DNA of 64,000 nucleotides, from assembly GCA_963675665.1 (NCBI GenBank), contig OY776510.1, positions 3,040,001-3,104,000 of the forward strand, given 5' to 3'. The position numbers were made by a program, and so were the translations under genes. The stretch comes from Spirochaetia bacterium. Its GTDB lineage: Bacteria > Spirochaetota > Spirochaetia > UBA9216. This document shows, piece after piece, positions 4,501 to 48,505 of this stretch. The notes beneath the pieces are model-generated. The model searched no databases, was not told the origin of the DNA, and saw only the letters and a list, made by a program, of their open reading frames with translations. How positions within the stretch are numbered: the stretch's first letter is position 1; each line of letters starts with the position of its first letter.

Positions 4501-7500
4501 GAAGGATTAATCGGAAGCGCGGAAGAATCCGGGCTGACCGGTATTACCGAAGCAGTTGTGCGGGATTTACAAGTGTATGAGGAAATCCTTGAACTGTATC
4601 AGCAGCAAGCCGATTCGGGCGGCGGGGAGTTCGTAATATATGAATGGGGTTCCGCACCCGGCGACACGCCTCCGGAACTTTCGAAACAGCAGGCCCTGCA
4701 GATTCTGTGGGACTACAGGGGCGGCGATACAGATGAAGAAACCGCATCGGACATTTTCGGGGTAGTCGAATCGCTCGGGGCCCTTGTTTCCTGGCTTGAA
4801 TCCCTCGGAAGTCTTGATGATGATATATCCGTACTCGAATCGGCAGTGCTTAATCCCGACGAGGCCCTGGGGCAGCAGTATCTTAAAGCCTGTCTAAGCG
4901 GACGCCGTAATCTTGCAACCGATATGGGCGATATGTATTCAGTGATCTATTCCGATTCCGTCAGCAGGCAGAAATACACAAAAGGGTTTGCCGAATTGTT
5001 GTCGGAAAATATCGATTACGCGCCCTGTCTGTCGGCTTACGGATATGAAAAATCCCGCGCGGGGCTGATAGAGATGCTTGCGCAGTTCGGGATAATAGAT
5101 GCCGATACCCTGATTTTTCATGCTCCCGAGGCCGTTTGGGAAGTCCGGGGATTTTCAACCGTCGAGGAAGTGGCCGGTTTCTTTACCGGGCTTGATAAGG
5201 CGGCATCGGGCCTTCAACTGCCTGAATATCTTGCGGAGATCTTTGAAGGGTACAGAGGCGAGCTGAAGGATTATTTCGCTATAAGGACCGCTTCGGCATT
5301 TTTCGGGGAGTTTTCCGGCGATCCGGGTCCTGTTAACGAAAAAATCAGGCTTGTAACGAACAGCATGAGCAGTCTGGGAGCGTTGACGGGCACACTTCAG
5401 AAAAGCAGTGATCAGAGCGTGAAACTTTTGGCTCTGGCCGTCTCCGATGATGTTTCGGACGAATTGCGGGAGGAAGCGGATTTTCGGCTGATAGAGACCG
5501 CTGGATTCGATCTGGCGGCCGACGCTCTGGACACGGACGGTTTCAGCGGCGCCGGGGCTGAATGGAACGAATTGTTCGACAATTATATATCAGCGGTGAG
5601 GACCGGCCTTGGTCAGGAAGACGGAATAGAGGACTACCGTTCGGCCATGACAGACCGGGCAGCGGAGCTTTGGGAGCTGTCTATTGCACTTGCCGATCCT
5701 GATTCGGTAGATCCGGACAGCGCTCCGGAACAATGGCTTGAATCCTACAGCGCCATGATCTGGAACAGTTTTGACTTTGACGAGGCGCTTGACCGGATTA
5801 CCGGGACCGACAGTACGATAAATATTTCTCAGCTTGAGCAACTTCGAATAATAGATCAGCTGATGCCCGAAACCGCAGGCGATTTTCCTTCCGATGTTGA
5901 GCTGGAGTGGCTTTACGAAGGAAATGAGGTCCTTCGTGAAGTTGATTCGATGATAGTCCTGGGACTGCCGGAATTGTGGGCCGGCGATTCGTTTGATATT
6001 GCGGAAACCGTAAAAAGCCGGTACTACAGTGATGAAGATATAAGCATAATGGAAGATATGCTTGTTTTGTCGATTGAAGAGTCGGAAGCAGGCGTTACAA
6101 CTGTAGACAAGGCCGTACAGCTCTGGAATGATCAATTCGACGGCGGTTTGGCGGACGGAAGCATTGACGGACTCCTGAAGGCCTTCTGCGGACTGGGGCT
6201 TATAAACCCGGCTGTGGAAGCGGCAGGGGAGTATTCGGCAGAATACGGATATGAAGACCTTCTTGACGAACTTTTGGCCGGGGCAGTCCTGAGCGAAGAC
6301 GATCTGGCCATTTTGGAGGAGGCTGTCCTGAATCCGGCGGAAGCCCTTGAAGCACGGCTTGACAAGCTTGCCGAGCTTGATGCCGAAGCCCTGTCGGGTG
6401 AAGAGCTTTACTGGAACCTTGCCTGGAATATCCGCTCGGACGCTGCGGAAGACGACTATTCCCGGACTGCCGCGCGCGGCGCCCGGATTTTTGACGATAT
6501 TGAAGCTGCCGGAGTAATCAGTAACTGGATTTCAAGCTTTGACGAAGCAGGTTTTGAATCGTATTCGGAGGAACTTGCGGACCTTTTTGATTCACAGATG
6601 AGCAGGATTGCAGGGCTTGCCCAAAGCCCGGCCGGAGGCGTCTATGCCTCCATAGCGGCATGCGGTATCGGCGAGGTACTGGTTGAGCAGGCCGGATATT
6701 CGGATGCGGACGCGGCTGATTTTGTAAACTGGTTTATGACAAAAAAAGGTATAGACGAAGCATTCGACCGGGAATCGTTGACCGATTATCTGTCGCTGGA
6801 ACCGGATGCGCGTTTTTATTCGGTTTTGGCCGATTATCCCGATGCGGCAAGCCACTATCTAAAGAAACAGATAGCGGAAGGAGCGTTTACCTCAACAACC
6901 CTGTCTGTTTTACTTGACTCCGTCAATCTTGCCGATGAGACGGAGGCGGAACTGGTTGAAATTCAGGGAATACTCGATGATGTAGAAGTCTATAACGAGC
7001 TTCTGCATGGAGATTTCGAGGATTTTCTTGACGAACGTTACGGCAGTGAAGAACAGAAGCGCACGGCGCGCGAGATCTACATGAGGTTTATGGGCAGCGC
7101 GGAGGTCCAGTGGGATGATGCCGTGTTCATGCTGTCTTCGGGTTGCGGAGCAGGCGCAAGGGAGATTCTTGATAACCTTTCGTTCAACCGGACAAGGGGC
7201 AGCAACCTTAGCGGGCTTAATCCCGGATCGGGAACAGGCTCAAACGAAGTGTTCTTAAACGAGGCCCTGATGACGATCTATGAGAAACTCTACGAAAGAG
7301 ATGACGCGCTGACGGCTGAACTGTCCGCTCTTCAGTCGGAGAGGGACCTTCAAGTCAGAGCAGCGGACTATCTCGGTTCTCTTGAAACTATCGATTCCGA
7401 CAACTGGCGAAGCTTCCTGAACGATGAATGCCTGTCCTCCGAAGACGATGAGCTGAATCTGGTTCCCGCTTCGACGGTTGATTATAATTATTCTGATTAT

Positions 7501-10500
7501 ACAAGAAATCTTCAGATAAACAATAATGACGGGGACCCGGTTTTTCAGAATTTTGATTCGCTTACGCTTTTTTCCGGCACGGGTAATGACCAGCTGAATA
7601 TAATTCTGGAAGCCGCAAACTCGTATCTTGATTACGCGGCATATCTGACCGCGGCAATCAACAGCTGGGACGACGGAACAATTTCGGCTACCGAAACCAT
7701 GAGAACCCTTCATGAAGGGCTTGGTTCCGCAGACGGCAGTGATTTCCGGAACAGCCTTGAATCCAAATCGTATGCTGAAATAAATCAGGCCTATTCATAC
7801 GAGATCGACGCGTCGGTTGAAAACGGATATAAAGAAGCCCGGAGTGAGTTTTATAACCTTACGGCAAAGATAGAATCAATTAAGGAAAGCCTTTCAAACT
7901 TCGGCTACAGAAGGGCGCGGCTTGTCAGAATGGCTGCTATGGGAAGTAGTGAACAGCTTGCGGAGCTCCGGCCCCTGAACGACGAGATAAGCGCGCTTGA
8001 GGCTGATATCGACGCGGCCCAGGCTGAATGGCAGGAGCTGATAGACGGCGCCGACGGATACAAAACGCTTGAAGAAGAATACGCCGGTGTTTACGCGCAG
8101 ACAAAAGCCGCCCTGGAGGAACTGAATGTACTGAAGCAGGAGTATTCTACTGCAAGGGCGATATACGAATACGCTTCGGCAGGCTACCTGAGTATAGACG
8201 ACGAAATACTCAGCGAGTTTGACCCGGTAGAGACCGGCGCCGAAGACGATTCAACAGCGCCGGAAGACGATGAAACCGAGGTAGAAAGCGGAATAACCGG
8301 CGGAACAATGGTGGCCTCTGATGTTGATCTAGGTGAACAGACCGCGGATCAGGTCTACCGCGATGCCCTGCTTGCGACCATCAACAAGGTAAGTCCCGCG
8401 GAAAGGCTTGTATATATAAATGAAAAGCTTGCAAGGGCCGGGGCCGCAAACGATGCGCTTGAGACGATAATAAACGGAGGCTCCGTGACCGGGTCAATCT
8501 ATTCGAAAGACGAGGTCTACCGGGCTTATTTCGATAATTACCTTGAAACCTTCCGCGAATCGCTTGTGTTGAACAAGATCAATCTCGTGCTCAACAAGGC
8601 AATCGCAAGGCAGGAGACCGTGACCCGTGAAGCCCTGTCCGACTGGAATACGGCGATTAGCGAAAGCTATGGAACGCCGGGCTATCTTGATTCAGAAGGC
8701 AACGCAATCGTTCCCGCCGGACTTGACTCATGCTCTATAGTACAAAATGCCGACGGAAGCCGGGACATAAACTGGGACGGCGCCGGCTCTAACGCGGAAA
8801 CATTCAGGCAATATTTTGAAGCAAATGAGAACTCCGAAACCGGTTCAAGTGATTTTCAAAACGATCTGATGCTCTGGCTGGAAAAAGTCAGCGGGATAAT
8901 GAACGGCAGCGGGGCCCGGGACCTTTTCACAACCTGGGCCATGGCGCTTAAATGGGAAGAGTTCCAGGCAGCAGGAGCCCCCGGCGATATAAACGACAAT
9001 TTCTGGACTGATTTCCTGAATAAAAACGGCGAAGGCGACCTGGACCGCGAAGGCGCCAGGACCCTGCTCATTACAGAATGGCAAAACGCCTTTAATAAGG
9101 TTAATTCCTGCACCGGTGAAAATAAACGGCTGTACAGTTTTTACAAGCTGCTCGATAAGGGCGGAATAATGCAGCTGAATACTGAAACAACAACGGGCGA
9201 CAGTTTTGAGACCTTTGATCTTCTCGGAGAAAATGAAAGCGTGATTCTGGCAAACCAGTATTTGTCGGATGAATATAATCAGGATGCCAATAACTTTTTT
9301 ATTGCCTCAATTCCAATGTTCAGCATGGCCGTAGCATATTTTGCTGCGGCAACACTTGCGCTTGCAATTCCGTTCAACTGGGTTGCCGCCATAATACTTT
9401 TCGCTTTGGGTACGGCAGCGGCCCTGGGCGGGGCTCATATGGTTGGAGAAGGAAACGCGAAAAAGGCCGCTGCAGATTATATTCAAAATAAGATTGTAAA
9501 ACCTGCGGAGTATAACAGTACGAAGTTTATGCTGAATTTCAAGCAAAACACATCATTGATTCTTGATAAGAAACAGGTGTATGAAGAAGAGTTCGCGAAA
9601 TTACAGAGGATGGAGGGAGAAGCCGACGGTGATGAAATCCTCACCGACGAACAGCGAATCGGGCTTTTAAAAATCTCGACTATTGAAGCCTTTAACAATG
9701 AAGGTGAAGATCTTCATGCCCTTCTGTTTCAGGGCGGACTTGTATCGGAAACCGGAAATACCGACGCTGATACCGCGGCGCTTGAAGCGCTGTTTGGCGA
9801 TTATCAGGAAATGATGGACCAGAGCGAGAAGGACGAAAGTGTCAACAGCAGCCTGTTTATAAGCGCGCTTGAAGAAGAATCGCAGGACTACAAACAGATT
9901 ACCGCGAGAGAGCTTAACGATTACCTGACCGGAGAAGACGGCGTTGCAAGAGAGCAGGTCGAGGCGGAAGAAGTGTACCGGAGTGCATACTATCAGTATC
10001 TGGCCGAAGAAATAAGCCTTGAGGAATTTGAAGAAGCGGCCGAATCGGCATTCGGAAACCCCGCCTTCTCGGTAAGGGAACACATGCTGAGGCTGTATGA
10101 ACAACAGGCCGGGATAGCGGAAATAATAATGGGCAGCGATCAGTTTAACGCCGCCATAAGCGCCGAGTTGCTTGAAAGCCGGGAACTCCTGCTATGCGGA
10201 AGCGGGAGCCGAAAAGGCATTTATGATTACAAGATGAGCAATTACCGTGAAGTCAGGATGTACGATCTGCAGATGCTGCAACTTGAAATGAACGAGAAAT
10301 ACCGCAACTGGGAGAACCGGATGAGGGCCATATCGGCACGGGGCGAGCTTGAATGGAGCGCCGGCGAACGGAAGCTTACCAGGAAATACACCGAATGGCA
10401 GAAAGAAACAAAGCGCCTGTACAACAGGCAGTCCGAAGCCTGGGACGATAAATACCTTGACTTTCTGAGCGATAAACAGGCATGGCTTGATGCGGTAATG

Positions 10501-13500
10501 ATCCAGAGCACGAAAGTCGGCGACATGGACGTGCTCGAAAACTTCGGAGAAATGACCGGAGCAGCCATAGCCGCAGCCGGAGCCGACGTGCTTGCAGGTG
10601 ATTTCAGCAGCCTGGAAACAGATCCTGGCGCGCTTCTGTCGGAGGTAGTAGACTTTGAGCTGTTGGGGACCCTGCTTGAAAACGCGCAGAACCTGAACGA
10701 CTCGATAAACGATACGGAGAACGTAATATTTACAGCCGCTGCGCCGGACAGCTTCACAACCGCCGACAGCCTGCAGGCGATAAAAGACTTTCAGTCTGTT
10801 CAGAATGAAGAGTATGAAAAGCACCTTGCCGAACTGGAACTTGAGCGTATGCTGGAACAGGTTGAGGATGCCGAGGAGAGCTTTAATGAGAGTATCGACT
10901 CCGCCAATAAAAGCCTGGACAGCAATATAAATCAAACAATGAGAAACGACGGCTACACGCGCAGCGGCGGACGCTATGAAAGAGAGCTTGTGGTAGGGGC
11001 AACAATAGGCGGGTACGTATATGAAGACGGTTATGTGAGCACATACGATGATTACCTCCCTGAAAATATTGATTTCGGAAGCGAATTGAAGGATGCCCGA
11101 AACAATGTTGCGAACCTTGATTCGAAAGGCCTGCAGGGGCTCGTTGCAAGGGCCATGGAGAACATACGGGAGCAGCTGAAACGGATATTCGGTTCGGACG
11201 ACGAGACGGAAAACGCCGAAATGCTTGTGGAGCTTGGTTTTCCGGTGACTGTGGAAAAAGATAAAGAAGGCACAGTAAAATATAAAAGAGAAGATACCAA
11301 TCACTCCATACTTGAGAGCGTAGCAGACTGGGTAGGGGAGCATCTTGATTTGAATATGGATACAAAAGAAAACTCTCCCGAAATATCACCGGGATTATTC
11401 GGAATACATGTAGGCTACGCGCCCGAGTTTGCCGATACCGCCGATACAGGCAGGGAATGGAACGACGAGGGGCAGCTGAAAGACGAAGGGCTTGGCGAAA
11501 TGGGAAGAATCATGGGTGAGTTTATCTTCAACAAAATGAAGGAAGGAGCCGGCTGGGCCGAGGTGAACATGCCGCATTACAAGAAACCGTTGTGGGAAGG
11601 CGAAATTTTCGGAATAGAAGCGCCGAGCGCTGCGGACCTGACGAGCCTTGCGGTTACTATCTGCACCGCCGGAGCTGCAAGCGGCGCAGGGGCCATACTT
11701 TCAGCGACAATAAACCTGAGCGATGATTTTGCGCTATCTGCAATGGACATAGTCACCGGAGACAAAAGCCTGCTTGAGGGAACGCTCGACTTTGGGAAAA
11801 AAGCATTTGTATCACTGGCAGGAGCAGGGATTGGCGAAGGCGGAGATGCTCTAAGCAGTACCCTGGATCTGGACTTGGGAGGGGAACTTCTGCTTGGCAC
11901 AGGAGAGCAGATAGTAACAAACACCGCCTCTGGAGCAATAAACGCCATAGAATACAGCGAAGAAGGAGGGTGGAACTACAACTGGAACACCCTTGTGCAG
12001 AGCGTGGCCGGAGAAGGTGCAGTAGCCGGGTATGTAGGAAGCGCCGCAGGAACGGCTGCAACATTCGGCTTGAACGAGTTGAATAACAGCATCGATGCCA
12101 ACGGATTTTATCTTGGAGATCTCAAAATAGATCAGGAACAAATAGGCCGTGTAAACTCGATGATAGGCGGTATTGCCGGTGAAGCGGCAGGTTCGCTTGT
12201 AGACAAGGATTTCTCGCTTAATGTTCTGAATCTGGCGGATATAATGGCGCTTGCGGGAGTTGAGGAAGAGAACACCAGTGACCTCGGCCTGTTTGAAGTG
12301 CATATGGGTTTTGACGAAGACGGAAACTTTACAAGCCGCAACAAGATAGGCACCGGCGGGGCCCAGGTAAGCTACCGCGATATTTTGTTTGATGCAGATT
12401 CAGTATTTAATAATATGGCAAGAATAAAGAGCATAAACGAAGACACTGCGGCAGCCGCGGCAAACCGCGACGTGATGCTGGGGATAACCGACAGAAGCAT
12501 AGGTGTTGATGAATTGACATTTGATGGAGCCAGCGAGGTAAGCGCGTTGCTTAGATCGCAGCTTGAAGGGACCCGAACCGAACAGAGTTACAAGAATATA
12601 AACGCATCGATGCATTCCATGACCGGTGTAATAAACAGCGGCTATTTGTCTGAAGGCAGTTCCGGGTATATAGAAGGTGATTCGGCAATGGCTGTAATGA
12701 TGCGTGAGCTTCTTGAAAATGACAAAAGCGGCATCAGCCATGAAAACCTGTTCGAAATGTTCGGCACCGAAGAAGGGCGCGAGCAGTTTGCAGAAGCAGT
12801 CCTTGATGCCAACCTGCTGCTTGCCTACAATCAGGGTGACATAGGCACTGATGAGTTTATGGGCAGTGATATCTTTAATACAACAGGAAGCTTCAGCCTT
12901 GCCTATGAGATGTATTCCGGAGCATACGGAGAAGAAACCTCGGCAGTAGTAACGCTTGCACGGATGTTTGAAAGCGGCAAAGCGTATGCGGGAACAATCA
13001 CAGATGCCGATATACAGGCGGATATAATTTCACAGAAGGAAGCCCTGGTAAATGAATATTTCAAGGAAGATATTGCCAATGCCGATGCTCTTTTGGGAGG
13101 AAATTTCTTTAATGCTGAATCGCATATTAATGAGGGAATAATATCGAACAGGATGGAACAGATAGGTGATGAAATGGCGGCAATAGCAGCGGCACATCTG
13201 GCCCATCAGTCATTAGCTTCCGGTGTAACCGGATATGACTCAAATACCATAACATATAAGAAAACGGAGCTGGATGAACTGAAGAAAAATTGGCTTGATT
13301 CTGCAATTGAACTGTCAAAAATAGCAAATGATAACGGCATCAAGTTTAATTATGAATATGCTTTAATAAGCAAGAACCCTGTCATGAATGAGGCCGGAAC
13401 GGCGGCATCACCGGTATATGGGGGAACAGGATTATATACACTGTATGGATGGGAAGTAATAACCCCGGAAATGGCGGAAGCGACCGGAAGAGCTGTATAC

Positions 13501-14109
13501 AGTAACAGATTACACGAAGCATATGATATTTCCAAAACCTGGGCGGAAGAACAGCAGTATGGAACTGATGAATACTTCACAGCTCCGGAAGCCGGAAGCT
13601 TTGATATTAGCTGGAATTCGGGAGGTGCCGGGATTGAGATAGTCTTAACATCAAGCGATGGTGCATATCAGCACCGATTAGGGCATAATTTTATAAACAG
13701 CATTGATGCTATGACGGAGCTGTTGATATTAAACGGTTCGACCGAAGTGGCCGCCGGAACTGTTATCGGGGAGTATCAGGATTATAAGACAAACGAATCT
13801 ACGGGATCTCATTCGCATTGGGAAGTATACAGAAATATGAGTGAAAGTCTTTTTACAAATTATATACAAATGGATAACAATGATTGGTTAACGGAAAGAT
13901 ACGGCAGTAATCCCTTTACGGCATCGGAAAGAGCGCAGAACCTGAGCGGTTTATCGGAACCGGGCACATATGAATATAATATAAACCTGACAAAGAAATA
14001 CGCTGCAGAGGAATACTGGAACTACAGAAGCAATCAGGAATTCGGTATAGAGCTTTCAACCAGGACAGAATTTTTATTCTATTTAAGGATGATGAATCAA
14101 TGGATGTAA
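1576..14109 (+). CDS. Giant secreted protein (4177 aa) with coiled-coil body, hydrophobic hairpin and C-terminal M23-peptidase-like domain; candidate polymorphic toxin
   Basis: Uninterrupted 12.5-kb ORF with an AAGGA RBS and a signal peptide (MKGVRSLFTVLLCFYSFILISNVIS). It has Trp-punctuated acidic helical segments. The C-terminal HEAYD...APEAG...GGAGIEIVL...HRLGH...VAAGTVIG...STGSHSHWEV matches the M23 HxxxD/HxH pattern. Confidence 0.8.
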   Translation: MKGVRSLFTVLLCFYSFILISNVISQDSEYNHADISFDNVLFRSYLDTADKRKSSEQWLDYARFGLESALSSWEKEIILLLGDDFDLSDLRDDAETELDEILKERYAEWLNNNFFNSVDPPSLGALSSEIVALNGQYLYETDKNGNITYKTTVNYSDVYTTDATGNETLVQKGEKTLWVEGVKSKIAELLDAWSQKMTTAFSELRASVTELALLEELEQDYLRDYESYQDNYRDELYRLYNTEQSRFTRLRLYDQYSLEHQSGQETASNISNELIAATRAELNSKLEALVRGLNAQAASGESGNGIVNAEDWRESFSTLLTLGMNSWDEAEQELLMKRIEWEQDAAGEVSDGEEAWADAFRQLSEKRTEWMNEYRRTLQEGNLLWAEESLELEEAIAKAVSEIDESIANSGASLQSRIDNLVGMLLQSVNMMRTARTSWEYWMDRFDEGEKGSFDTRGIDFDPDSMLAVTEEVKNRLDEEKLNEKYSTIAAYSDYDQEAMKHAMAWIDDKYGIYTEGLWSEPLSYSDKLDIFNSYDPYKYNIPYYGLNPYYLYNVRNQYFSAIDDLFSEMAVLGSVPQTGSDVYDEAVYWIDMFRTYQEYALDARQGLAETYGIVVFDNASLQTAFNGDELNDALLDNDLLFDQDSWESIYLDEYQVELLKARAYMQYWRKQQEIARAVYDYAADNSSTKENAGVTLGRLADAKAAYEEVLAEYSDCLDRLSNISTDLETLQADMQTIQEEIDGYQQQLDDVRSQYNSAITDLDLGNAEYLAGQYREYYIRLLESMGMTGDSEESPSTALEEYLLAASEYGLEDRISLVSNRIVGLLSGGENTNLDGSMFNPETASLSELGRRMQTVSDAGFISGPSTDELFGFEGNEEAIDQFNAYLSDKLLLPMSDYRHDKLIEYFTAYTDADTEEIEKSRLLWQMQLIAEEVRNENSMNYELRLAELRLLSTDDFSSWAQQHFGDEAADADPEGLIGSAEESGLTGITEAVVRDLQVYEEILELYQQQADSGGGEFVIYEWGSAPGDTPPELSKQQALQILWDYRGGDTDEETASDIFGVVESLGALVSWLESLGSLDDDISVLESAVLNPDEALGQQYLKACLSGRRNLATDMGDMYSVIYSDSVSRQKYTKGFAELLSENIDYAPCLSAYGYEKSRAGLIEMLAQFGIIDADTLIFHAPEAVWEVRGFSTVEEVAGFFTGLDKAASGLQLPEYLAEIFEGYRGELKDYFAIRTASAFFGEFSGDPGPVNEKIRLVTNSMSSLGALTGTLQKSSDQSVKLLALAVSDDVSDELREEADFRLIETAGFDLAADALDTDGFSGAGAEWNELFDNYISAVRTGLGQEDGIEDYRSAMTDRAAELWELSIALADPDSVDPDSAPEQWLESYSAMIWNSFDFDEALDRITGTDSTINISQLEQLRIIDQLMPETAGDFPSDVELEWLYEGNEVLREVDSMIVLGLPELWAGDSFDIAETVKSRYYSDEDISIMEDMLVLSIEESEAGVTTVDKAVQLWNDQFDGGLADGSIDGLLKAFCGLGLINPAVEAAGEYSAEYGYEDLLDELLAGAVLSEDDLAILEEAVLNPAEALEARLDKLAELDAEALSGEELYWNLAWNIRSDAAEDDYSRTAARGARIFDDIEAAGVISNWISSFDEAGFESYSEELADLFDSQMSRIAGLAQSPAGGVYASIAACGIGEVLVEQAGYSDADAADFVNWFMTKKGIDEAFDRESLTDYLSLEPDARFYSVLADYPDAASHYLKKQIAEGAFTSTTLSVLLDSVNLADETEAELVEIQGILDDVEVYNELLHGDFEDFLDERYGSEEQKRTAREIYMRFMGSAEVQWDDAVFMLSSGCGAGAREILDNLSFNRTRGSNLSGLNPGSGTGSNEVFLNEALMTIYEKLYERDDALTAELSALQSERDLQVRAADYLGSLETIDSDNWRSFLNDECLSSEDDELNLVPASTVDYNYSDYTRNLQINNNDGDPVFQNFDSLTLFSGTGNDQLNIILEAANSYLDYAAYLTAAINSWDDGTISATETMRTLHEGLGSADGSDFRNSLESKSYAEINQAYSYEIDASVENGYKEARSEFYNLTAKIESIKESLSNFGYRRARLVRMAAMGSSEQLAELRPLNDEISALEADIDAAQAEWQELIDGADGYKTLEEEYAGVYAQTKAALEELNVLKQEYSTARAIYEYASAGYLSIDDEILSEFDPVETGAEDDSTAPEDDETEVESGITGGTMVASDVDLGEQTADQVYRDALLATINKVSPAERLVYINEKLARAGAANDALETIINGGSVTGSIYSKDEVYRAYFDNYLETFRESLVLNKINLVLNKAIARQETVTREALSDWNTAISESYGTPGYLDSEGNAIVPAGLDSCSIVQNADGSRDINWDGAGSNAETFRQYFEANENSETGSSDFQNDLMLWLEKVSGIMNGSGARDLFTTWAMALKWEEFQAAGAPGDINDNFWTDFLNKNGEGDLDREGARTLLITEWQNAFNKVNSCTGENKRLYSFYKLLDKGGIMQLNTETTTGDSFETFDLLGENESVILANQYLSDEYNQDANNFFIASIPMFSMAVAYFAAATLALAIPFNWVAAIILFALGTAAALGGAHMVGEGNAKKAAADYIQNKIVKPAEYNSTKFMLNFKQNTSLILDKKQVYEEEFAKLQRMEGEADGDEILTDEQRIGLLKISTIEAFNNEGEDLHALLFQGGLVSETGNTDADTAALEALFGDYQEMMDQSEKDESVNSSLFISALEEESQDYKQITARELNDYLTGEDGVAREQVEAEEVYRSAYYQYLAEEISLEEFEEAAESAFGNPAFSVREHMLRLYEQQAGIAEIIMGSDQFNAAISAELLESRELLLCGSGSRKGIYDYKMSNYREVRMYDLQMLQLEMNEKYRNWENRMRAISARGELEWSAGERKLTRKYTEWQKETKRLYNRQSEAWDDKYLDFLSDKQAWLDAVMIQSTKVGDMDVLENFGEMTGAAIAAAGADVLAGDFSSLETDPGALLSEVVDFELLGTLLENAQNLNDSINDTENVIFTAAAPDSFTTADSLQAIKDFQSVQNEEYEKHLAELELERMLEQVEDAEESFNESIDSANKSLDSNINQTMRNDGYTRSGGRYERELVVGATIGGYVYEDGYVSTYDDYLPENIDFGSELKDARNNVANLDSKGLQGLVARAMENIREQLKRIFGSDDETENAEMLVELGFPVTVEKDKEGTVKYKREDTNHSILESVADWVGEHLDLNMDTKENSPEISPGLFGIHVGYAPEFADTADTGREWNDEGQLKDEGLGEMGRIMGEFIFNKMKEGAGWAEVNMPHYKKPLWEGEIFGIEAPSAADLTSLAVTICTAGAASGAGAILSATINLSDDFALSAMDIVTGDKSLLEGTLDFGKKAFVSLAGAGIGEGGDALSSTLDLDLGGELLLGTGEQIVTNTASGAINAIEYSEEGGWNYNWNTLVQSVAGEGAVAGYVGSAAGTAATFGLNELNNSIDANGFYLGDLKIDQEQIGRVNSMIGGIAGEAAGSLVDKDFSLNVLNLADIMALAGVEEENTSDLGLFEVHMGFDEDGNFTSRNKIGTGGAQVSYRDILFDADSVFNNMARIKSINEDTAAAAANRDVMLGITDRSIGVDELTFDGASEVSALLRSQLEGTRTEQSYKNINASMHSMTGVINSGYLSEGSSGYIEGDSAMAVMMRELLENDKSGISHENLFEMFGTEEGREQFAEAVLDANLLLAYNQGDIGTDEFMGSDIFNTTGSFSLAYEMYSGAYGEETSAVVTLARMFESGKAYAGTITDADIQADIISQKEALVNEYFKEDIANADALLGGNFFNAESHINEGIISNRMEQIGDEMAAIAAAHLAHQSLASGVTGYDSNTITYKKTELDELKKNWLDSAIELSKIANDNGIKFNYEYALISKNPVMNEAGTAASPVYGGTGLYTLYGWEVITPEMAEATGRAVYSNRLHEAYDISKTWAEEQQYGTDEYFTAPEAGSFDISWNSGGAGIEIVLTSSDGAYQHRLGHNFINSIDAMTELLILNGSTEVAAGTVIGEYQDYKTNESTGSHSHWEVYRNMSESLFTNYIQMDNNDWLTERYGSNPFTASERAQNLSGLSEPGTYEYNINLTKKYAAEEYWNYRSNQEFGIELSTRTEFLFYLRMMNQWM

Positions 14110-41683: not shown

Positions 41684-43237
41684 TTACTCCTCGGTCCAGT
41701 CCAGGTAGTGAATATATGCTGCTCCGCCGCTGACGCCTCCTTCATCTTCGTAGGGCGCGCCGACAATAGCGTAATTGCCGTCTGCATTGACGGAAAAACC
41801 GAAATTGTCGCCTTCCTCAGCATCGAATGCAAAAATTTTCTCGCCTGAGTCCCAGGTGTTTGTTCCGGTTCGGTGAAACAGAACAACAGCTCCGGCGCTG
41901 GCTCCGGCGCTGTCGTTGCCCGGCGCGCTTATAAGAGCCCTGTCGCCCGCTATGGATACTTTTCTGCCGAAAAACTCTCCGGACTGGGCATTCGGCGCCG
42001 TAAGTTTATAACCGGCGTCCCAGGTTGTGGTATCTGTACGGCGAAAGATGTAGGCTGCGCCGGCATTTTCACCCATATCTTCATTACAATCTGCTCCGAC
42101 AACGGCATAGTCACCGTCTATGGCTACGTATGAGCCGAACTGGTTTTCGGCCCCGTCGATAACAGCCGAGGGCTCGGTAATCTTTATTCCCGAGTCCCAG
42201 GTATTGTTGTCGGTGTCGGTGCAATGAAAAAAATAGGCGGCACCTGCGCCTAAAAAGGGATACGGTCCTACAACGGCATAACTTCCGCTTATTGCAACTG
42301 AATTACCGAAAAGCTCATTTTCATAGGGTGCGGTCGACTTGATTTCTGTTCCGGCGTCCCAGATGTTTGAGGCCGTATCAGTACAATGAAAAATATAGGC
42401 GGAGCCTTCTCCAACATGGCTGTCATAATCACCTGTAGCCCCGATAATTGCATACTCCCCGTCGATATCAACCCTGTCGCCGAAATACTTGTTATTATTC
42501 GGATCAGAAGGAACAATTTTTGTGCCTGTGTCCCAGGTATTGCCGCCGGTACGTCTGAAGATATAGGCTGCGCCGCTGTCTGAACCTCCGCCGTTATCGT
42601 TGCGCCATGCGCCGACAATAATATAGTTTCCGTCGATTGCAACTGCAATTCCAAACTCGTCTTCTGCAGTCGGGTCAGTCGCAACAAGTCTTGTTGCTTC
42701 ACCCCAGCTGTTTGTTCCGGTTCGGTGAAAAACATAGGCGGCTCCCGCTTCGGTTGTAGCGCCGTAGTCTTCCTTGCTGGCTCCTACTACGGCGTAATCG
42801 CCGCTTACGTCGACGTAACGGCCGAAATTTGCGCCGTCAGCGGGGTTTTGCGACAGAAGTTTGATCATGTCGGGGTACCACTGGGCGTAGAGGGCAACAT
42901 CTTCAGTGCCCATGGAAAAGGTCTCACCAGGTTCATAGGAAATGCCGCTTCCGTTCGACGCTGTGTTCCATGATGAAAAAGTAAATCCGTCCCGGTCAAG
43001 GTTTCCCTCGTCAAGAACGGTGACTGAAGCATTTTCTTCGTAGGCGTTTGCGTCCAGGGGAACTGTGCCGCCGTCCGAATTATGACCCATATAGGTAACT
43101 GTAAAGGTCGGCGCTTCAGCGGTAAGCCCGAGATCGGAATTTATTTTCTGCTGGATTATATCTACAAATGAAGAGTTAAAGGTGCAGGCGGTAATAATAA
43201 CGGGTATTGCTGTCAGTATAAATACCTGAAAAACCAA
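41684..43237 (-). CDS. Lipoprotein: conserved N-terminal tag, InlB-B/Flg_new repeat and FG-GAP beta-propeller (5' end appears frameshifted)
   Basis: Lipobox ITA|C. VTYMGHNSDGGTVP...GFTFSSWNTASNGSG...LYAQW repeat; seven FGxxVxIxGDYAxVGA...GAAYIF repeats. The RBS-linked ATG at 43257 is out of frame by 1 nt. Confidence 0.85.
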   Translation of the reverse strand: MVFQVFILTAIPVIITACTFNSSFVDIIQQKINSDLGLTAEAPTFTVTYMGHNSDGGTVPLDANAYEENASVTVLDEGNLDRDGFTFSSWNTASNGSGISYEPGETFSMGTEDVALYAQWYPDMIKLLSQNPADGANFGRYVDVSGDYAVVGASKEDYGATTEAGAAYVFHRTGTNSWGEATRLVATDPTAEDEFGIAVAIDGNYIIVGAWRNDNGGGSDSGAAYIFRRTGGNTWDTGTKIVPSDPNNNKYFGDRVDIDGEYAIIGATGDYDSHVGEGSAYIFHCTDTASNIWDAGTEIKSTAPYENELFGNSVAISGSYAVVGPYPFLGAGAAYFFHCTDTDNNTWDSGIKITEPSAVIDGAENQFGSYVAIDGDYAVVGADCNEDMGENAGAAYIFRRTDTTTWDAGYKLTAPNAQSGEFFGRKVSIAGDRALISAPGNDSAGASAGAVVLFHRTGTNTWDSGEKIFAFDAEEGDNFGFSVNADGNYAIVGAPYEDEGGVSGGAAYIHYLDWTEE

Positions 43238-43273
43238 TTGTTTTTTTCTTTCTGCATCTTTTCCCCTTTTAAA

Positions 43274-44764
43274 TCAGTCCCTGTAAAACCAGGATACGGA
43301 ATCTGCTCTGTTGCCGGTGACATAGGCATAGGCGCCGTCGGCGGTTACAGCTATCGAGTCCGCTTCGTCAATGTAATCACTGCTGACTTCACACATATAG
43401 GTCATTTCGCCGGTGCCTGCGTCAGTTGAAAGACAGGCCACATCGGTGTCTCCCGGCACGTATACTGTAGCGTCATCAGGCGATAAGGCAACGCAGGAGG
43501 CAAAATACATGCTGTCGTTTGAAACCCTGTGCATATACGAGAGCGCGCCGGTGCCGGTATTTCTTGAAAATGCTGCTGCGCCGCTACCGCCGGATGTTGT
43601 ATAGACATTATTCCCGTCCGCTGTAACAGCTGCAAACGTTATAGTATCAATATTTGAATTGGTTAATTCACCAACATATGAAAGGGCCCCGGTTCCGGAA
43701 TCTCTGTTAAACCAGGCAACTGTATCGGTATTAAATGCATAGACGTGCAGCCCGTCAGGCGAGACGGTAACGAATGAAAAGAATGTACTATATGTGTATT
43801 CTCCCGTGTAAGTAAGGGTCCCGGTATCAGTGTTCCTGGTAAACCAGGTTACCTTGTTGGCGCTTGAGCAAACCGCATAAACATGTTTGTTGTCCGGTGA
43901 AACCGCTACGGATCTTGTATTTACTATAGATTGATGCCAGAGTTTGTCTATATAGGTCAGGGCGCCGGTGTCGGTGTTCCTGGAAAACCAGGCTACCGAG
44001 CTTTTGTTAAACGAGGCAAGATAGATGTGCTTTCCGTCGGGGGCAATTGTAATCTGGTAGGGATAGCTCAGGTTATCGGAATCAACGTACCGGTCTGTAT
44101 AGGAAAGGGCCCCGGTATCAGCGTCTCTGGAAAACCAGGCAATCCCGGCGTCGCCTAACAGGCAGACATAAACATGCTTATTATCAGGCGAAAGGATAAT
44201 ATCGGTTGGAGAGTTTATTGTAGTTTCATCCGAATAGCTGCCGATATAAGAGAGCTCGCCGGGGTTATTTATTCCGGTAACCGAGAATATATAGTTCTTC
44301 TCATCAGTGTCGTTTGTTGTCACCATTACCGTTGCTGACTTGTTCCCGCTGGATAGGGGATCAAACCTTACTGTAAAGGTTGTTGAACCTGAAGGTGTAA
44401 CGGAGGCTGATGTTCCGTCGGTCAGATCAAAGTCAGCTGTATTCCCTGACGATAAAGATACGCTTTCGATAACAAGGTCGGCTGTTCCCGTGTTTTCGAT
44501 CGTAAAGGTTATTTCTCCGCTCGCGTAGCCCCCGTCGCCGTCGTTATGCATATGGCCGAAGCTGTATGTCCCCATGCCTGAAGCCAGTTCGGTTGAACCC
44601 TGCTTTACGGCAATTTCCGGTTCCGCAACCTCGTCGGTAATACCCAGATCGGTATTAATCTTGTCCTGGATCAAATCGACAAAGGACGACTCAAAGCTGC
44701 ATGACGCTGAGAAGGCTGTCAGGATTATAATTAATAATATTATTTTTCTATTTACATTTTTCAT
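43274..44764 (-). CDS. Lipoprotein: conserved N-terminal tag, ASH/choice-of-anchor-D Ig domain and lactonase-like beta-propeller
   Basis: Lipobox SAS|C. PEIAV...FTIENTGTADL...FTVRFDP...NDTDE Ig domain; repeated SPDNKHVY...WFSRNTDTGALTY blades. Confidence 0.88.
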   Translation of the reverse strand: MKNVNRKIILLIIILTAFSASCSFESSFVDLIQDKINTDLGITDEVAEPEIAVKQGSTELASGMGTYSFGHMHNDGDGGYASGEITFTIENTGTADLVIESVSLSSGNTADFDLTDGTSASVTPSGSTTFTVRFDPLSSGNKSATVMVTTNDTDEKNYIFSVTGINNPGELSYIGSYSDETTINSPTDIILSPDNKHVYVCLLGDAGIAWFSRDADTGALSYTDRYVDSDNLSYPYQITIAPDGKHIYLASFNKSSVAWFSRNTDTGALTYIDKLWHQSIVNTRSVAVSPDNKHVYAVCSSANKVTWFTRNTDTGTLTYTGEYTYSTFFSFVTVSPDGLHVYAFNTDTVAWFNRDSGTGALSYVGELTNSNIDTITFAAVTADGNNVYTTSGGSGAAAFSRNTGTGALSYMHRVSNDSMYFASCVALSPDDATVYVPGDTDVACLSTDAGTGEMTYMCEVSSDYIDEADSIAVTADGAYAYVTGNRADSVSWFYRD

Positions 44765-44789
44765 TATGCCATATCCTGTTTTCTCCGGA

Positions 44790-46394
44790 TTACCTGAACC
44801 GATATACTATATTAAGATCATCGGAAGAACTCCCTGCGACGACTATCTTGCCGTCTGAATCCGTTGCTATTCCCGCGCCGGTAGCGGAGGTGCCGTCGTC
44901 GCAGACAAAAGCGCCGTCTGTACCGAAGGTCGGGTCGGAGGTCCCGTCGGGCAGGTACCTCCAGATTGCTATCCGCCCCGTATGTGATGCATCTACATCA
45001 ACCCTTCCTGTAACCAGGATGTTACCTGCGTTATCCAGACAGAGGCCGTAACCATAGTTAAACATGTAACCATAGCTGTACTCCAGGTATCCGTTTATGC
45101 CGAATGAGGTATCCAGTGAACCGTCATCATTCAGACGTAACAGAATCATATAGTAGTTACTGCCGTCATAGGCGTATCCTGTCACGAGGATTTTCCCGTT
45201 GGCATCAATGATGACGTCCTGACCGTAATTGCTGGTGTTTCCCAGTTCGGCACTGCCTAATATTACTGCGCCGGATGTTCCGAAGGTGCTGTCGGCTGTA
45301 CCGTCGTTTTTGTATCTCCAGACACCAAGGTTTCGCACTGCACCGGAATAAATATATCCGGTTACAACAATATTATTCTCTTCGTCAAGGGTAACCGCAG
45401 AACCCCAATCGTTTTCGCCGTGGTCTATTGTGACGGTGCCGTCGTCATCAAAGGATGTATTTTCTGAACCGTCGTCGTTGTATCGTTGGATTAAAATGTC
45501 GTCGTCGGAAACAGGCCTTGTATAACCGGCAACTACAATCTTGCCGCTGTCGTCGATAACAATGCCGTTTGCAACGTCTGAATCGTTGGTTACGTCACCT
45601 TCGTAGTTAACCATAGAAAATGATGAGTCTGTATTCCCGTTTTCCAGATAGCGCCAGATAGCCAGATCAACAAAACCTGCTCCATCTCCGGTTTTCCCTG
45701 CAATTAAAATATTATTGCTGCCGTCGGTAGTTATATCGCAACCTTCAACAGGATCAGTGCCTGAAGAGCTGATTATTCCGTCGGTATTGAAGGTCTGGTC
45801 AAGACTACCGTTGCTGTTATAACGGCAGGAGTACATGTCCATTTCTCCACCCATAAGTGTATCGGCCCAACCGGTTACAAGGATTCTGCCCTCAGTATCG
45901 AAATGGACAGCATTCCATCCTCCCTGGCTCAGGCTCTGGCCTTTTAATTCCTGGCGAACGTAGCCCAGCGTATTGAAGTCGGTATCGATTTCACCCTTCG
46001 GGAGCACCAGGAACTCGCATGTTGCTGAAAATTCCCCGTCGGAGGTTGTCGCGGTAATGGTTGCGCTTCCAGGTCCGGTGCCGGTCACAAGGCCCGTATC
46101 GCTGACTGCGGCTTTGTTCCCGTCGTTGCTGGACCAGTTGACGACCTGGTTTGTTGCATTGGCGGGTTCAAAAACTGCCGTCAGCTGCTGTGTATACCCC
46201 GAGGTGACTGTAATATCAGATTTGTCGAGAGTGATGCCGGTTGCAGCCACATTACCTGCAATCCCAAGGTCGGTATTAATCTTGTCCTGGATAAGATCGA
46301 CAAAGGACGACTCAAAGCTGCAGGAGAATATCAGAAATACAAACGGTATGACGGTAAATGAGATTGACGCTGATAAAAAAAGTTTTTTTCTCAT
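44790..46394 (-). CDS. Lipoprotein: conserved N-terminal tag, Big_2 Ig domain and delta-60-repeat propeller
   Basis: ATG 46394 overlaps the upstream TGA (ATGA). Lipobox IFS|C. ATGITLDK...PANATNQVVNWSS...GSATITATT; repeated GKIVVAG...RYNxDGSLDxSFG. Confidence 0.88.
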   Translation of the reverse strand: MRKKLFLSASISFTVIPFVFLIFSCSFESSFVDLIQDKINTDLGIAGNVAATGITLDKSDITVTSGYTQQLTAVFEPANATNQVVNWSSNDGNKAAVSDTGLVTGTGPGSATITATTSDGEFSATCEFLVLPKGEIDTDFNTLGYVRQELKGQSLSQGGWNAVHFDTEGRILVTGWADTLMGGEMDMYSCRYNSNGSLDQTFNTDGIISSSGTDPVEGCDITTDGSNNILIAGKTGDGAGFVDLAIWRYLENGNTDSSFSMVNYEGDVTNDSDVANGIVIDDSGKIVVAGYTRPVSDDDILIQRYNDDGSENTSFDDDGTVTIDHGENDWGSAVTLDEENNIVVTGYIYSGAVRNLGVWRYKNDGTADSTFGTSGAVILGSAELGNTSNYGQDVIIDANGKILVTGYAYDGSNYYMILLRLNDDGSLDTSFGINGYLEYSYGYMFNYGYGLCLDNAGNILVTGRVDVDASHTGRIAIWRYLPDGTSDPTFGTDGAFVCDDGTSATGAGIATDSDGKIVVAGSSSDDLNIVYRFR

Positions 46395-48505
46395 TCTTCT
46401 TCTTCCCATAAAACCGTATCGCGGAGTCCTGCTGTATCGGCCGCCCTTACGGCTTCTTCGCCCCTCAGGTCAAGATACGCAAACTGTGATGCCGTTTCGG
46501 GGGAAAGAATTTTTAACCGTTCGTATGTTTCCCCTACCATGCCGTAGTTTTCAAGTTCATGATTGCAGCGTGAAATACCCAGCAGGGCGGTTTTATCTTC
46601 GCTGTTAACAGCAAGCGCCTGCTGATAATACCCGAGCGCCTGTTTAAAATCATCCTGGATGAAATAAATATTTCCAAGGTTATTTAATGACGGTCTGTAT
46701 TTTACAGTGCTGATGATTTTCTTAAAAAGATCGGCCGCGCGATCGTATAGACCGTAGCGGGCGTATAAAACAGCCAGTCTGTTCTGCAGCTTGTATTTTG
46801 TATTGCTTTGCTCGATCTTTGCCTGCAACTGGGCCGTCTGGGGGTAAATTTCCTGCTCAATGTGCCTGGAGAGGGTATTTTTAAAGGAATCTTGTACCTT
46901 ATCCTTGTCCGGAAGGTTGATAGCAACAGAGCTTTCACTGAAACCGACGGCCTGATAGGTCTTCCATGATTCCCTGGTAGGGTAGAGTACGGCCTGTTCC
47001 TTCGATGCGTTCTCGCGCCACTCCTTTGCCCCGGACTGCCAGGCATTTCTGAAATTGTCCTGGAACATCGTGATCTCAACCGGGACCCATGCCTTGTTTT
47101 CGCGGAAGATAAGTTCGTCCGACCGGCTGAAGACGTTCCGCGCCTCGTCAGGACCTGTTTTCAGCGCAAATGCGGTGTAAATATGACCCGGAATGGTTAT
47201 GACTGCAGTCTCAACGCCTACTGCCTCAAGCAGAGCTGTGTACAAGGCGGAAAGATCATCGCAGTCGCCGTTGGTGTATTCCAGGGTCTGCCTTGGAAAC
47301 TGGAGAAAATCAACAACTGTTGTCTCCTGTGATAATTCGGAAAAAGGAGTAGAAGGATCAATTTCATATTGTATCCCGTAGATTTGTATCGCGTTAAACA
47401 GCGCCATTGCCTTTTGTAAATTCTCATCCACAGCAGGATTCTCTACTTCATGCATCCAGCTCATAACGTTCTTTGAGAAACTCAGCACAATAGGGTCTTT
47501 TGCGGTAATAAATGATGATATCTTTCGATCGTCGTCCCAAACCAGGGCGTTACGGTTATGAAACTCAAGCACGGGGTTATACTCGGCCGAATAGAGTTGA
47601 CCGTCCAGAGTATACGAAACAGTGATCTTTGTGGAAGCCTTGGTGCCTTCGGTAATATCCATAAGATCTTCGGTAAAGAGTCCCAGAAGATTTATTACAG
47701 TTTCTTCTCTCGGTTCCAGGTTAAAGCTCGCGCCGCTTTCCATCGGGTTGTCCATATAGCGTTCAACATAGAATTTTATCTTTATGTCCTTTACCGGCTT
47801 TTTCTCATGATTAACAACCCTTGCAGTTCCTACAGGATTATTATCGTAGTATTTGTAGAGGACCGGAAAAAGCTGGTTGAGAGTAATATCCTGAAGGCCT
47901 ATGCCCCTTCCGTCTTCAAGGGTCTGCGGCTGCATTCCGCCGGGCATGAATGATGTGCCGGAAGATGATTTTACGGGAACATCCATCTTCAGCAACAGGC
48001 TGAAATTGATTCCATTATAAAGATTTTTCATGAAATCATATGAAGTGCCGATTCCGAGAGAAAACGGTCCGGCAAGTTTAAACGTTCCTGCCGCGCTGGT
48101 TTTTATATAAAAGTCTCCGCCGTTCCCGTCGCCTGCGTCCCAGCCGACAGGGTTCCAGGAATAATAACCGAAATTACCGAAAATATTCAAACCGAAGCGA
48201 TTGCCAAGAGGAAAGTTGATAACAGGTCCGGCCCCGAAGCCGAGCGTTCTGATTGAATCCGCCGTCTCAAGCGGAAGAACGGTGAAGTCTCCGCCTATAC
48301 CCAGGCCGAAATATTTTAAGAATGAGGGAATAAAAAAGGCTTCAACTTCAGCGCCGGCCCCCATTTTAAATAATGCGGTACTGCTGGCACCGAGAGGGAC
48401 AGCTCCGTGGGGAACAACATTAATCGACAAAATATTTTCCTGCTGACTGAAAACCACGGGGGCTACAAGTATCAAAACAAACAATATTGCTATAAACTTT
48501 TTCAT
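46391..48505 (-). CDS. Outer-membrane beta-barrel, Ig-like, transglutaminase-like and TPR protein
   Basis: AGGAGA RBS before ATG 48505 and a signal peptide. About 8 amphipathic aromatic strands (GFGAGPVINFPLGNRFGLNIFGNFGYYSW). Transglutaminase-like core GDCDD...PGHIY...WVPVEIT and TPRs NRLAVLYARYG, NNLGNIYF. Confidence 0.8.
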   Translation of the reverse strand: MKKFIAILFVLILVAPVVFSQQENILSINVVPHGAVPLGASSTALFKMGAGAEVEAFFIPSFLKYFGLGIGGDFTVLPLETADSIRTLGFGAGPVINFPLGNRFGLNIFGNFGYYSWNPVGWDAGDGNGGDFYIKTSAAGTFKLAGPFSLGIGTSYDFMKNLYNGINFSLLLKMDVPVKSSSGTSFMPGGMQPQTLEDGRGIGLQDITLNQLFPVLYKYYDNNPVGTARVVNHEKKPVKDIKIKFYVERYMDNPMESGASFNLEPREETVINLLGLFTEDLMDITEGTKASTKITVSYTLDGQLYSAEYNPVLEFHNRNALVWDDDRKISSFITAKDPIVLSFSKNVMSWMHEVENPAVDENLQKAMALFNAIQIYGIQYEIDPSTPFSELSQETTVVDFLQFPRQTLEYTNGDCDDLSALYTALLEAVGVETAVITIPGHIYTAFALKTGPDEARNVFSRSDELIFRENKAWVPVEITMFQDNFRNAWQSGAKEWRENASKEQAVLYPTRESWKTYQAVGFSESSVAINLPDKDKVQDSFKNTLSRHIEQEIYPQTAQLQAKIEQSNTKYKLQNRLAVLYARYGLYDRAADLFKKIISTVKYRPSLNNLGNIYFIQDDFKQALGYYQQALAVNSEDKTALLGISRCNHELENYGMVGETYERLKILSPETASQFAYLDLRGEEAVRAADTAGLRDTVLWEEEE

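Follow-up and report, generated by a model that had tools for sequence, protein, structure and literature searches.

A spirochaetal envelope cassette pairing a predicted outer-membrane transglutaminase-fold protein with lipoproteins that share a helix beside the acylated cysteine

Introduction

What does a protein that combines a small β-barrel, a transglutaminase-like core and tetratricopeptide repeats (TPRs) do with three lipoproteins that are encoded behind it and that have unrelated bodies but nearly the same peptide directly after the lipidated cysteine? The question is raised by a locus in a 64,000-nucleotide stretch of DNA from a Spirochaetia bacterium (UBA9216; GenBank assembly GCA_963675665.1, contig OY776510.1, positions 3,040,001 to 3,104,000 of the forward strand), which we refer to as the window and which is part of a single-contig 5.15-Mb genome. 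We report here that the locus is one copy of a conserved, previously undescribed envelope cassette of free-living spirochaetes, and that the enzyme probably recognizes a short helix (the tag) in its cognate lipoproteins. Our interpretation of the whole, which we put a little below an even chance, is that a periplasm-facing, outer-membrane-tethered cysteine peptidase recognizes this tether helix and cuts, or docks, adhesin-like lipoproteins.

How spirochaetes sort, display and release their lipoproteins is a largely unsolved problem, and we know of no consensus motif in the tether that follows the lipidated Cys of Borrelia lipoproteins. The cassette presents a defined, selected and modular tether element that is genetically tied to a specific enzyme family. 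Two Borrelia studies report that the post-Cys tether matters for localization (PMC2987989; bioRxiv 10.1101/2022.12.21.521298). Our literature searches found no paper describing a cassette of this enzyme and tagged lipoproteins; a periplasmic transglutaminase-fold enzyme that works on the anchoring end of adhesin-like proteins is a known kind of system, and it is the architecture and the class of substrate that are undescribed here.

Results

One predicted operon encodes an enzyme-like protein and three lipoproteins

Four minus-strand open reading frames (ORFs), A to D, fill the segment 41684-48556 of the window, with the following features.

46391..48505, minus: gene A, a secreted protein with barrel, middle region, transglutaminase-like core and TPRs; 704 residues from the MKKF start at 48505 (the longest ORF extends to 48556)
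47936..48445, minus: residues ~21-190 of A, predicted eight-stranded outer-membrane β-barrel, from a homologue profile
47516..47908, minus: residues ~200-330 of A, conserved β-rich region before the core, the putative 'Ig-like' region of the preliminary description
46946..47503, minus: residues ~335-520 of A, transglutaminase-like core, from Pfam matches in the family and the Cys/His/Glu residues
46436..46843, minus: residues ~555-690 of A, TPR repeats and conserved acidic C-terminus
44790..46409, minus: gene B, lipoprotein with Big_2 and a delta-60/DUF5122 propeller
46260..46322, minus: tag of B, the lipobox Cys and 20 residues
43274..44764, minus: gene C, lipoprotein with a choice-of-anchor D/HYDIN-like Ig domain and a lactonase-type propeller
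44639..44701, minus: tag of C, a peptide identical to the tag of B
41684..43237, minus: gene D, lipoprotein with a Flg_new repeat and seven FG-GAP_2 repeats
43124..43186, minus: tag of D, a variant of the B/C peptide

A preliminary description of this DNA had proposed a single minus-strand operon of an enzyme and three lipoproteins. All four ORFs are indeed present on that strand, and the coupling of A to the first lipoprotein gene can be read in the sequence, where the stop of A overlaps an ATG of B (46392-46394) in an ATGA at 46391-46394. B, C and D are predicted lipoproteins: B and C each begin with an n-region, an h-region and a lipobox-like S-C end, and D has an h-region and a T-A-C lipobox, with no charged n-region at the in-frame TTG that is its only in-frame start. 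Consistent with the earlier claim that the three bodies are unrelated, they contain different Pfam domains and, with the first 24 mature residues removed, gave no mutual BLASTP match at E≤1e-3.

Protein A has an invariant Cys-His-Glu set in a transglutaminase-like core

Protein A has a cleavable signal peptide, a Gly- and aromatic-rich N-terminal domain of ~170 residues, a conserved middle region, the transglutaminase-like core and TPRs. Cys415 (in GDCDD, exactly at the 47255-47269 given in the preliminary description), His441 (in PGHIY, 47177-47191) and Glu477 (in PVEIT, 47069-47083) are invariant in an alignment of 50 homologues, as are D414, D416 and D417, which flank the Cys; the positions of the latter two motifs were computed from the ORF coordinates. 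The proposed Cys, His and acidic residue are present, with Cys and His in the canonical order and with Glu, rather than the Asp of the canonical Cys-His-Asp triad, as the third residue. Among 49 middle regions of the wider family, Cys, His and Glu are kept together in 46 and lost jointly in 3, two of which sit in tandem with an intact copy, and the D-C-D-D around the Cys is retained in 47-48. This joint keeping and loss is the pattern predicted for a working catalytic triad. (The triad-less members, putative pseudo-enzymes, are L056:2446-4539, L057:2378-4477 and L045:7982-11149, of which the first two are those in tandem with an intact copy.)

The Pfam family Transglut_core (PF01841) matches 40 of the 49 family members at E≤0.01 (best 1.8e-6); A itself reaches 19.7 bits over its full length and 21.1 bits over its middle region, where the Pfam cut-off is 23. 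Sequence and profile searches of the PDB with the middle region returned only a weak match to a transglutaminase-like domain (E 0.45), the whole of A had TPR proteins as its sole matches there, and the feature-based look-alikes of A in the ESM Atlas are unnamed or transglutaminase-like clusters. Peptidase_C93 (PF06035) did not match A at E≤0.01, nor was it one of the four to which the 49 relatives gave matches. (A stand-alone ORF of 163 residues elsewhere in the host genome, L090 at C1 4491556-4492044, scores 22.8 bits with Peptidase_C93, which is below the cut-off, and E 1.5e-6 with our middle-region profile; it is the sole PF06035 match in this genome.)

At the other end of the protein, a profile of 35 N-terminal domains matches NspA (1p4t; E 9.7e-4), a designed eight-strand barrel (6x1k) and Opa60. 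Pfam OMP_b-brl matches four of the 35 domains and OMP_b-brl_2 matches one, with the window copy matching no family, and eight amphipathic strands can be read by eye in the domain (a crude script resolved no individual strands). A resembles OmpA, NspA and Opa in the length and apparent strand pattern of its N-terminal domain and in carrying a functional part C-terminal to the barrel, whereas that part is an enzyme with TPRs and not the peptidoglycan-binding domain of OmpA-type proteins. Both ends of OmpA-type barrels are periplasmic. Because the N-terminal domain resembles eight-stranded barrels, we infer by analogy that the catalytic and TPR parts of A would face the periplasm, under the outer membrane, rather than the cell surface.

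Residues 244-518 of A, which take in some of the β-rich region along with the core, also match the N-terminal part of NCBIfam NF058533 (anti-phage protein ProA) with 46.2 bits against a cut-off of 1500 bits, and the match covers just profile positions 14-294 of 1903, so that the likeness appears to be one of a shared N-terminal module only. A role in phage defense, which this match could suggest, was rejected: apart from weak TPR and LmuB matches, PADLOC gives no defense family for A. A literature search on ProA found nothing.

The enzyme family is large and its genes adjoin lipoprotein genes

A profile of the middle region matches 5304 representative proteins at E≤1e-3, 2712 at 1e-10 and 1835 at 1e-30. 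Because a family of this size is annotated only as 'TPR protein' or 'hypothetical', assigning it a function would annotate thousands of genes. When 7999 candidates were scored, 369 proteins matched A at E≤1e-10; matches to A come from Spirochaetales metagenome bins and Oceanispirochaeta, and their source names are only 'TPR repeat protein', 'hypothetical', 'LapB' and 'transglutaminase-like putative cysteine protease'. A match to A is found in 23 of 41 relatives (counting the host genome). A phylum-wide sample of 201 genomes contains 33 with a match at E≤1e-20. These cluster in a few families (15 of 17 genomes in one of them), and several well-sampled families of that sample gave none (0/16, 0/23 and 0/24).

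The host genome has seven copies of the family, five of which are directly followed, and one directly preceded, by a lipoprotein gene. For the seventh, the lipoprotein gene lies ~1.4 kb upstream, behind a transposase-like ORF. (Outside the window, C1 3765016-3766128 and 3773915-3775027 form a transposase-like repeat whose N-terminal 75 residues are identical, and one of the two splits an enzyme/lipoprotein pair.) Note that our lipoprotein calls come from a home-made rule set that over-predicts (385 in the host genome), and that the genomes compared are related, so the pairing counts are descriptive and not a statistical test. In the relatives, with 46 family ORFs at 40 loci, an adjacent same-strand predicted lipoprotein was present in 34, and a lipoprotein gene overlaps the enzyme gene or lies within 30 nt of it for 32 of the 46 ORFs (27 downstream and 5 upstream only). 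The 14 without such a tight partner include four with a contig end less than 100 nt downstream and three that are second members of tandem enzyme pairs. At the 19 loci of close relatives (47-64% identity), a tagged lipoprotein was found at 13 of the 14 loci with visible downstream DNA, 12 called by script and one by eye; the fourteenth has no lipoprotein with a homologous tag.

Some partner lipoproteins consist of 1750-2000 residues of repeated domains. Where enzyme and partner genes overlap, overlaps of 14-25 nt recur across clades (for example L024, L025, L038 and L050, and 46391-46409 in the window), and the shared bases encode the acidic C-terminus of the enzyme (ending in W-E-E-E) and, in the other frame, the M-G-R-R start of the partner.

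The tag is a modular helix under apparent selection

The claim that all three lipoproteins share a 21-residue peptide from the lipobox Cys onward was borne out, with B and C identical and D a variant. The strict tag pattern occurs in only three genes of the whole 5.15-Mb genome, namely B, C and D. Between genes B and C, the DNA for this identical peptide has five base differences, which fall in four codons and are all synonymous, and the signal peptides and downstream sequences of the two are unalignable; this points to purifying selection on the peptide. Recent gene conversion, which we considered as the source of the identity, was rejected on the same grounds.

In partner lipoproteins more generally, the Cys of the tag is followed by one polar residue and one that caps a helix (Pro, Ser, Asp or Asn), after which come ~16 residues with a hydrophobic residue at every fourth position. 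The predicted helix starts 3-4 residues from the acylated Cys, and no such helix is present in 32 other lipoproteins of the enzyme loci. Within the clade of A, 17 tags could be placed in register (the 3 of the window and 14 outside it). Cys1 and Ser5 are invariant in these, position 3 is hydrophobic in all 17, position 4 is Asp or Glu in 15, position 7 is Phe or Tyr in 16, and positions 11 and 15 are hydrophobic in 17 and 15, respectively. The conserved hydrophobic positions 3, 7, 11 and 15 form one face of the helix. Tags of this clade precede Flg_new-first, Big_2-first and other bodies, that is, at least three unrelated first domains.

The fold superfamily that the core resembles includes cross-linking enzymes, and Q-x-K is found in all three window tags, so we entertained the idea that A is a genuine transglutaminase for which the tag supplies the Gln and Lys, cross-linking or polymerizing the lipoproteins. 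The 'invariant I-Q-x-K' of the preliminary description holds inside the window but not beyond it: Gln12 is present in 8 of the 17 clade tags and Lys14 in 10 (among the 14 tags outside the window, 5 and 7), the partner of the closest paralogue in the host genome has Lys-Glu-Lys at this site, and the tags of other enzyme clades lack both Gln and Lys at the corresponding positions. Moreover, with its acidic triad residue and the acidic neighbors of its Cys, A looks like the protease branch of the superfamily. Non-conservation of Gln and Lys in other genomes had been named in advance as a finding that would count against cross-linking chemistry, and, given that both residues vary, the Gln-Lys reading fails; we regard it as highly improbable.

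Across clades, the tags are alike in a looser sense. A profile trained on 31 tags, all tightly coupled and all from other genomes, ranks the enzyme-adjacent lipoproteins of the host genome 1, 4, 5, 10, 27 and 35 among the 385 predicted lipoproteins. A single tag profile for all clades, which we tried and abandoned, works in some clades and is not significant for the window tags. All ten enzymes with a KRxTGDCDDLTV motif pair with a C-P-x-P type of tag. (At three loci of this C-P-x-P clade, what looks like a secreted WD40-type protein is encoded directly upstream of the enzyme, at C1 4156112-4158154, L058 8526-10580 and L048 10247-12343; the N-termini of these proteins were read by eye, and they may represent a third conserved partner.) Four 'orphan' LVIVD lipoproteins, encoded away from enzyme genes, rank 2, 3, 9 and 11 with the same cross-clade profile. 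The orphans of this kind are as follows.

C1 3020524-3023235, 1096708-1099464, 4564480-4567569, 4568935-4571952 and 3365924-3368779, outside the window: LVIVD-type lipoproteins with a C-P-x-P tag

The three host enzymes of the matching clade might act on these orphans in trans; that tagged lipoproteins lie far from enzyme genes implies that the enzyme is presumably able to act in trans.

The tag had originally been put forward as a recognition signal. The gene pairing, the unrelated bodies and the purifying selection support it as a modular element tied to the enzyme and, on this sequence evidence, recognition of the helix by the enzyme seems probable. We also considered that there may be no direct interaction. 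General machinery (Lol, Bam or an LptD-like flippase) would then read the helix as an element of structure or of the membrane surface, and the enzyme gene would merely be co-regulated. At 3-4 residues from the lipid anchor the helix would lie on the membrane surface, gene pairing by itself is no proof of binding, and orphan tagged lipoproteins exist. However, the pairing holds over enzyme clades that are only ~30-40% identical, tag type tracks enzyme clade, some enzymes are fused to partner-type domains, and the 32 helix-less lipoproteins come from the same loci. We consider the absence of an interaction very unlikely.

Discussion

In the mechanism that we favor, of which we infer the topology, the helix binding, the proteolysis and the final location of the lipoproteins, the N-terminal eight-stranded barrel would hold A in the outer membrane, with the Cys-His-Glu domain and the TPRs hanging in the periplasm beside the inner leaflet. 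The clade-specific amphipathic helix after the acylated Cys would be the element read by the enzyme, which would cut the tether as a cysteine endopeptidase and so free, or mature, the β-propeller/Ig-domain body from its lipid anchor. Cleavage of the tether is ranked first because the D-C-D-D motif and a helix beside the anchor fit the logic of LapG. Together with DvhG/DvhA, LapG/LapA is the closest worked-out analogue, although A is not a member of that family. DvhG is reported to be a periplasmic, calcium-dependent, LapG-type transglutaminase-like cysteine protease with its catalytic C317 between the calcium-site residues D316 and E318; LapG-type substrates, which are giant adhesins, have in their N-terminal anchoring region a 'targeting helix' before a T/A/P-A-A-G cut site (PMC13090378). 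The cassette shares with these systems a transglutaminase-fold cysteine enzyme in the periplasm (by the topology that we propose for A), acidic residues on either side of the catalytic Cys (a parallel in sequence only), and, as the proposed target, the N-terminal anchoring end of large adhesin-like proteins, with its helix. In contrast to LapG, A has no Peptidase_C93 match, has Glu where the LapG family has Asp at the end of the triad, and has a predicted outer-membrane barrel and TPRs of its own. Further, B, C and D are lipid-anchored lipoproteins, unlike LapA, which is a type 1 secretion substrate plugging a TolC-like pore, and the operon has no LapD-like receptor for cyclic di-GMP.

Several observations weigh against release by cleavage or against recognition of the tag. 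No conserved scissile motif like the T/A/P-A-A-G of LapA, and in particular no di-alanine site, follows the helix in the 17 clade tags. A's own Transglut_core score is under the Pfam cut-off. The cross-clade profile scores the window tags 4.1 and 2.3 bits, which is not significant, so that 'one tag family' is valid within clades and only the helix type is common across them. Gene pairs are inherited as units, and a match of tag type to enzyme clade is therefore expected with or without binding and is not independent evidence for recognition. At least five C-P-x-P-tagged lipoproteins of the host have no enzyme gene nearby. Were the lipoproteins located on the surface, an enzyme in the periplasm would have to encounter them ahead of their export. 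Finally, two observations fit a stable complex better than a release protease: the recurrence of start/stop overlaps between enzyme and lipoprotein genes across clades, and an in-frame fusion, P0114, in which the enzyme-TPR part runs straight on, lacking any intervening lipobox or tag, into a C-terminal fn3-like region and LVIVD propeller.

These last observations bring us to the alternative that the tag helix docks the lipoproteins permanently on the TPR/enzyme body, as interchangeable substrate-binding adaptors of a holo-complex whose catalysis is directed at a third molecule (an envelope protein, peptidoglycan or a polymer). Conserved overlaps suggest stoichiometric co-production, a second fusion (P0155) has a WD40 propeller before the core in place of the barrel, a conserved hydrophobic helix face is what would be expected of a docking helix, and here a single enzyme gene serves three different bodies. 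On the other hand, the orphan lipoproteins mean that the stoichiometry is not fixed, the gene neighborhood indicates no third-party substrate, and the longest partners are long for a periplasmic adaptor. We judge a stable holo-complex of this kind to be fairly unlikely.

A different role for the barrel-TPR protein would be that of a receptor, with a function like that of Slam, that takes the helix as a spirochaetal surface-export signal and hands cognate lipoproteins to an outer-membrane flippase. TPRs plus a barrel are the layout of Slam too; in Slam the TPRs are N-terminal, the larger barrel is C-terminal and there is no enzyme domain. Like Neisseria Slam, A is a predicted outer-membrane protein with TPRs and a barrel that is encoded beside specific lipoproteins, and the bodies of these are adhesin-like and β-rich, which is typical of surface proteins; unlike that of Slam, the predicted barrel of A is small and N-terminal, a catalytic domain is present, and the signal is N-terminal. 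The lipoprotein export signal (LES) of Bacteroidetes consists of a few charged residues and is used genome-wide, whereas the tag is a ~16-residue helix whose type is specific to the enzyme clade and which is limited to neighbors of one enzyme family. What the two have in common is their position: the LES, too, is reported to be a short conserved motif immediately behind the lipidated Cys, where it determines what becomes of the lipoprotein (PMC5080379). The strict keeping of the triad, and its joint loss in 3 of 49 members, would be left unexplained by a receptor role. There was no match to the Slam barrel, a sub-threshold TPR_Slam match was seen in one long relative only, and no Slam family is among the Pfam or NCBIfam matches of A. 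Moreover, a family that went unfound in most of the spirochaete families sampled (33 of 201 genomes have it) cannot be a general export route. Since eight-stranded barrels such as NspA and Opa have no translocation pore, export through the barrel itself is not to be expected either, and we consider an export receptor distinctly unlikely. Of the roles that the preliminary description had offered for the barrel enzyme, namely export, processing and covalent anchoring, processing stays the leading option, export is unlikely and Gln/Lys cross-linking drops out.

Processing of a lipidated N-terminus is also a step in the assembly of type V pili. A cysteine protease is reported to remove the lipidated N-terminus of the Porphyromonas FimA and Mfa1 precursors before assembly (PMC8512630, PMC5954841). 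That protease is a surface gingipain and not a barrel-anchored transglutaminase-fold enzyme, and the pilins are mutually homologous and polymerize, whereas the bodies encoded here are unrelated propeller and Ig proteins.

If the enzyme cuts the tether, the cassette would be a second, independently built instance of the LapG principle for the control of adhesins, and the enzyme could also be developed into a means of releasing proteins from membranes in a tag-specific way. A broader proposal, which we regard as rather doubtful, is that of a 'tether code', in which clade-specific post-Cys helices are read by outer-membrane-anchored transglutaminase-fold enzymes that decide between release, surface display and covalent hand-over of a lipoprotein. 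If true, the lipoprotein-processing machinery concerned would form a class of which no counterpart has been described, and the phylum would have its first tether signal defined by sequence.

Other features of the window

The start of gene D has a further peculiarity.

43240..43257, minus: 5' region of D, with an ATG at 43255-43257 that is out of frame with D and lies behind a good ribosome-binding site, followed by an A7 run at 43241-47

The reading frame of this upstream ATG stops after 14 codons. In it the A7 run reads as A_AAA_AAC, and D would gain a canonical lipoprotein signal peptide by a -1 slip there (or by one extra A). The A7 run is unchanged in contigs from three public runs of two samples, and the start of D may involve programmed frameshifting, transcriptional slippage or phase variation.

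An Rfam scan of the whole window gave no family. At 1576-14109 on the plus strand, the window also contains an ORF of 4177 residues that has a signal peptide, matches no Pfam family at E≤1e-5 and lies in a stretch of ~50% G+C with flanks of 31-39%.

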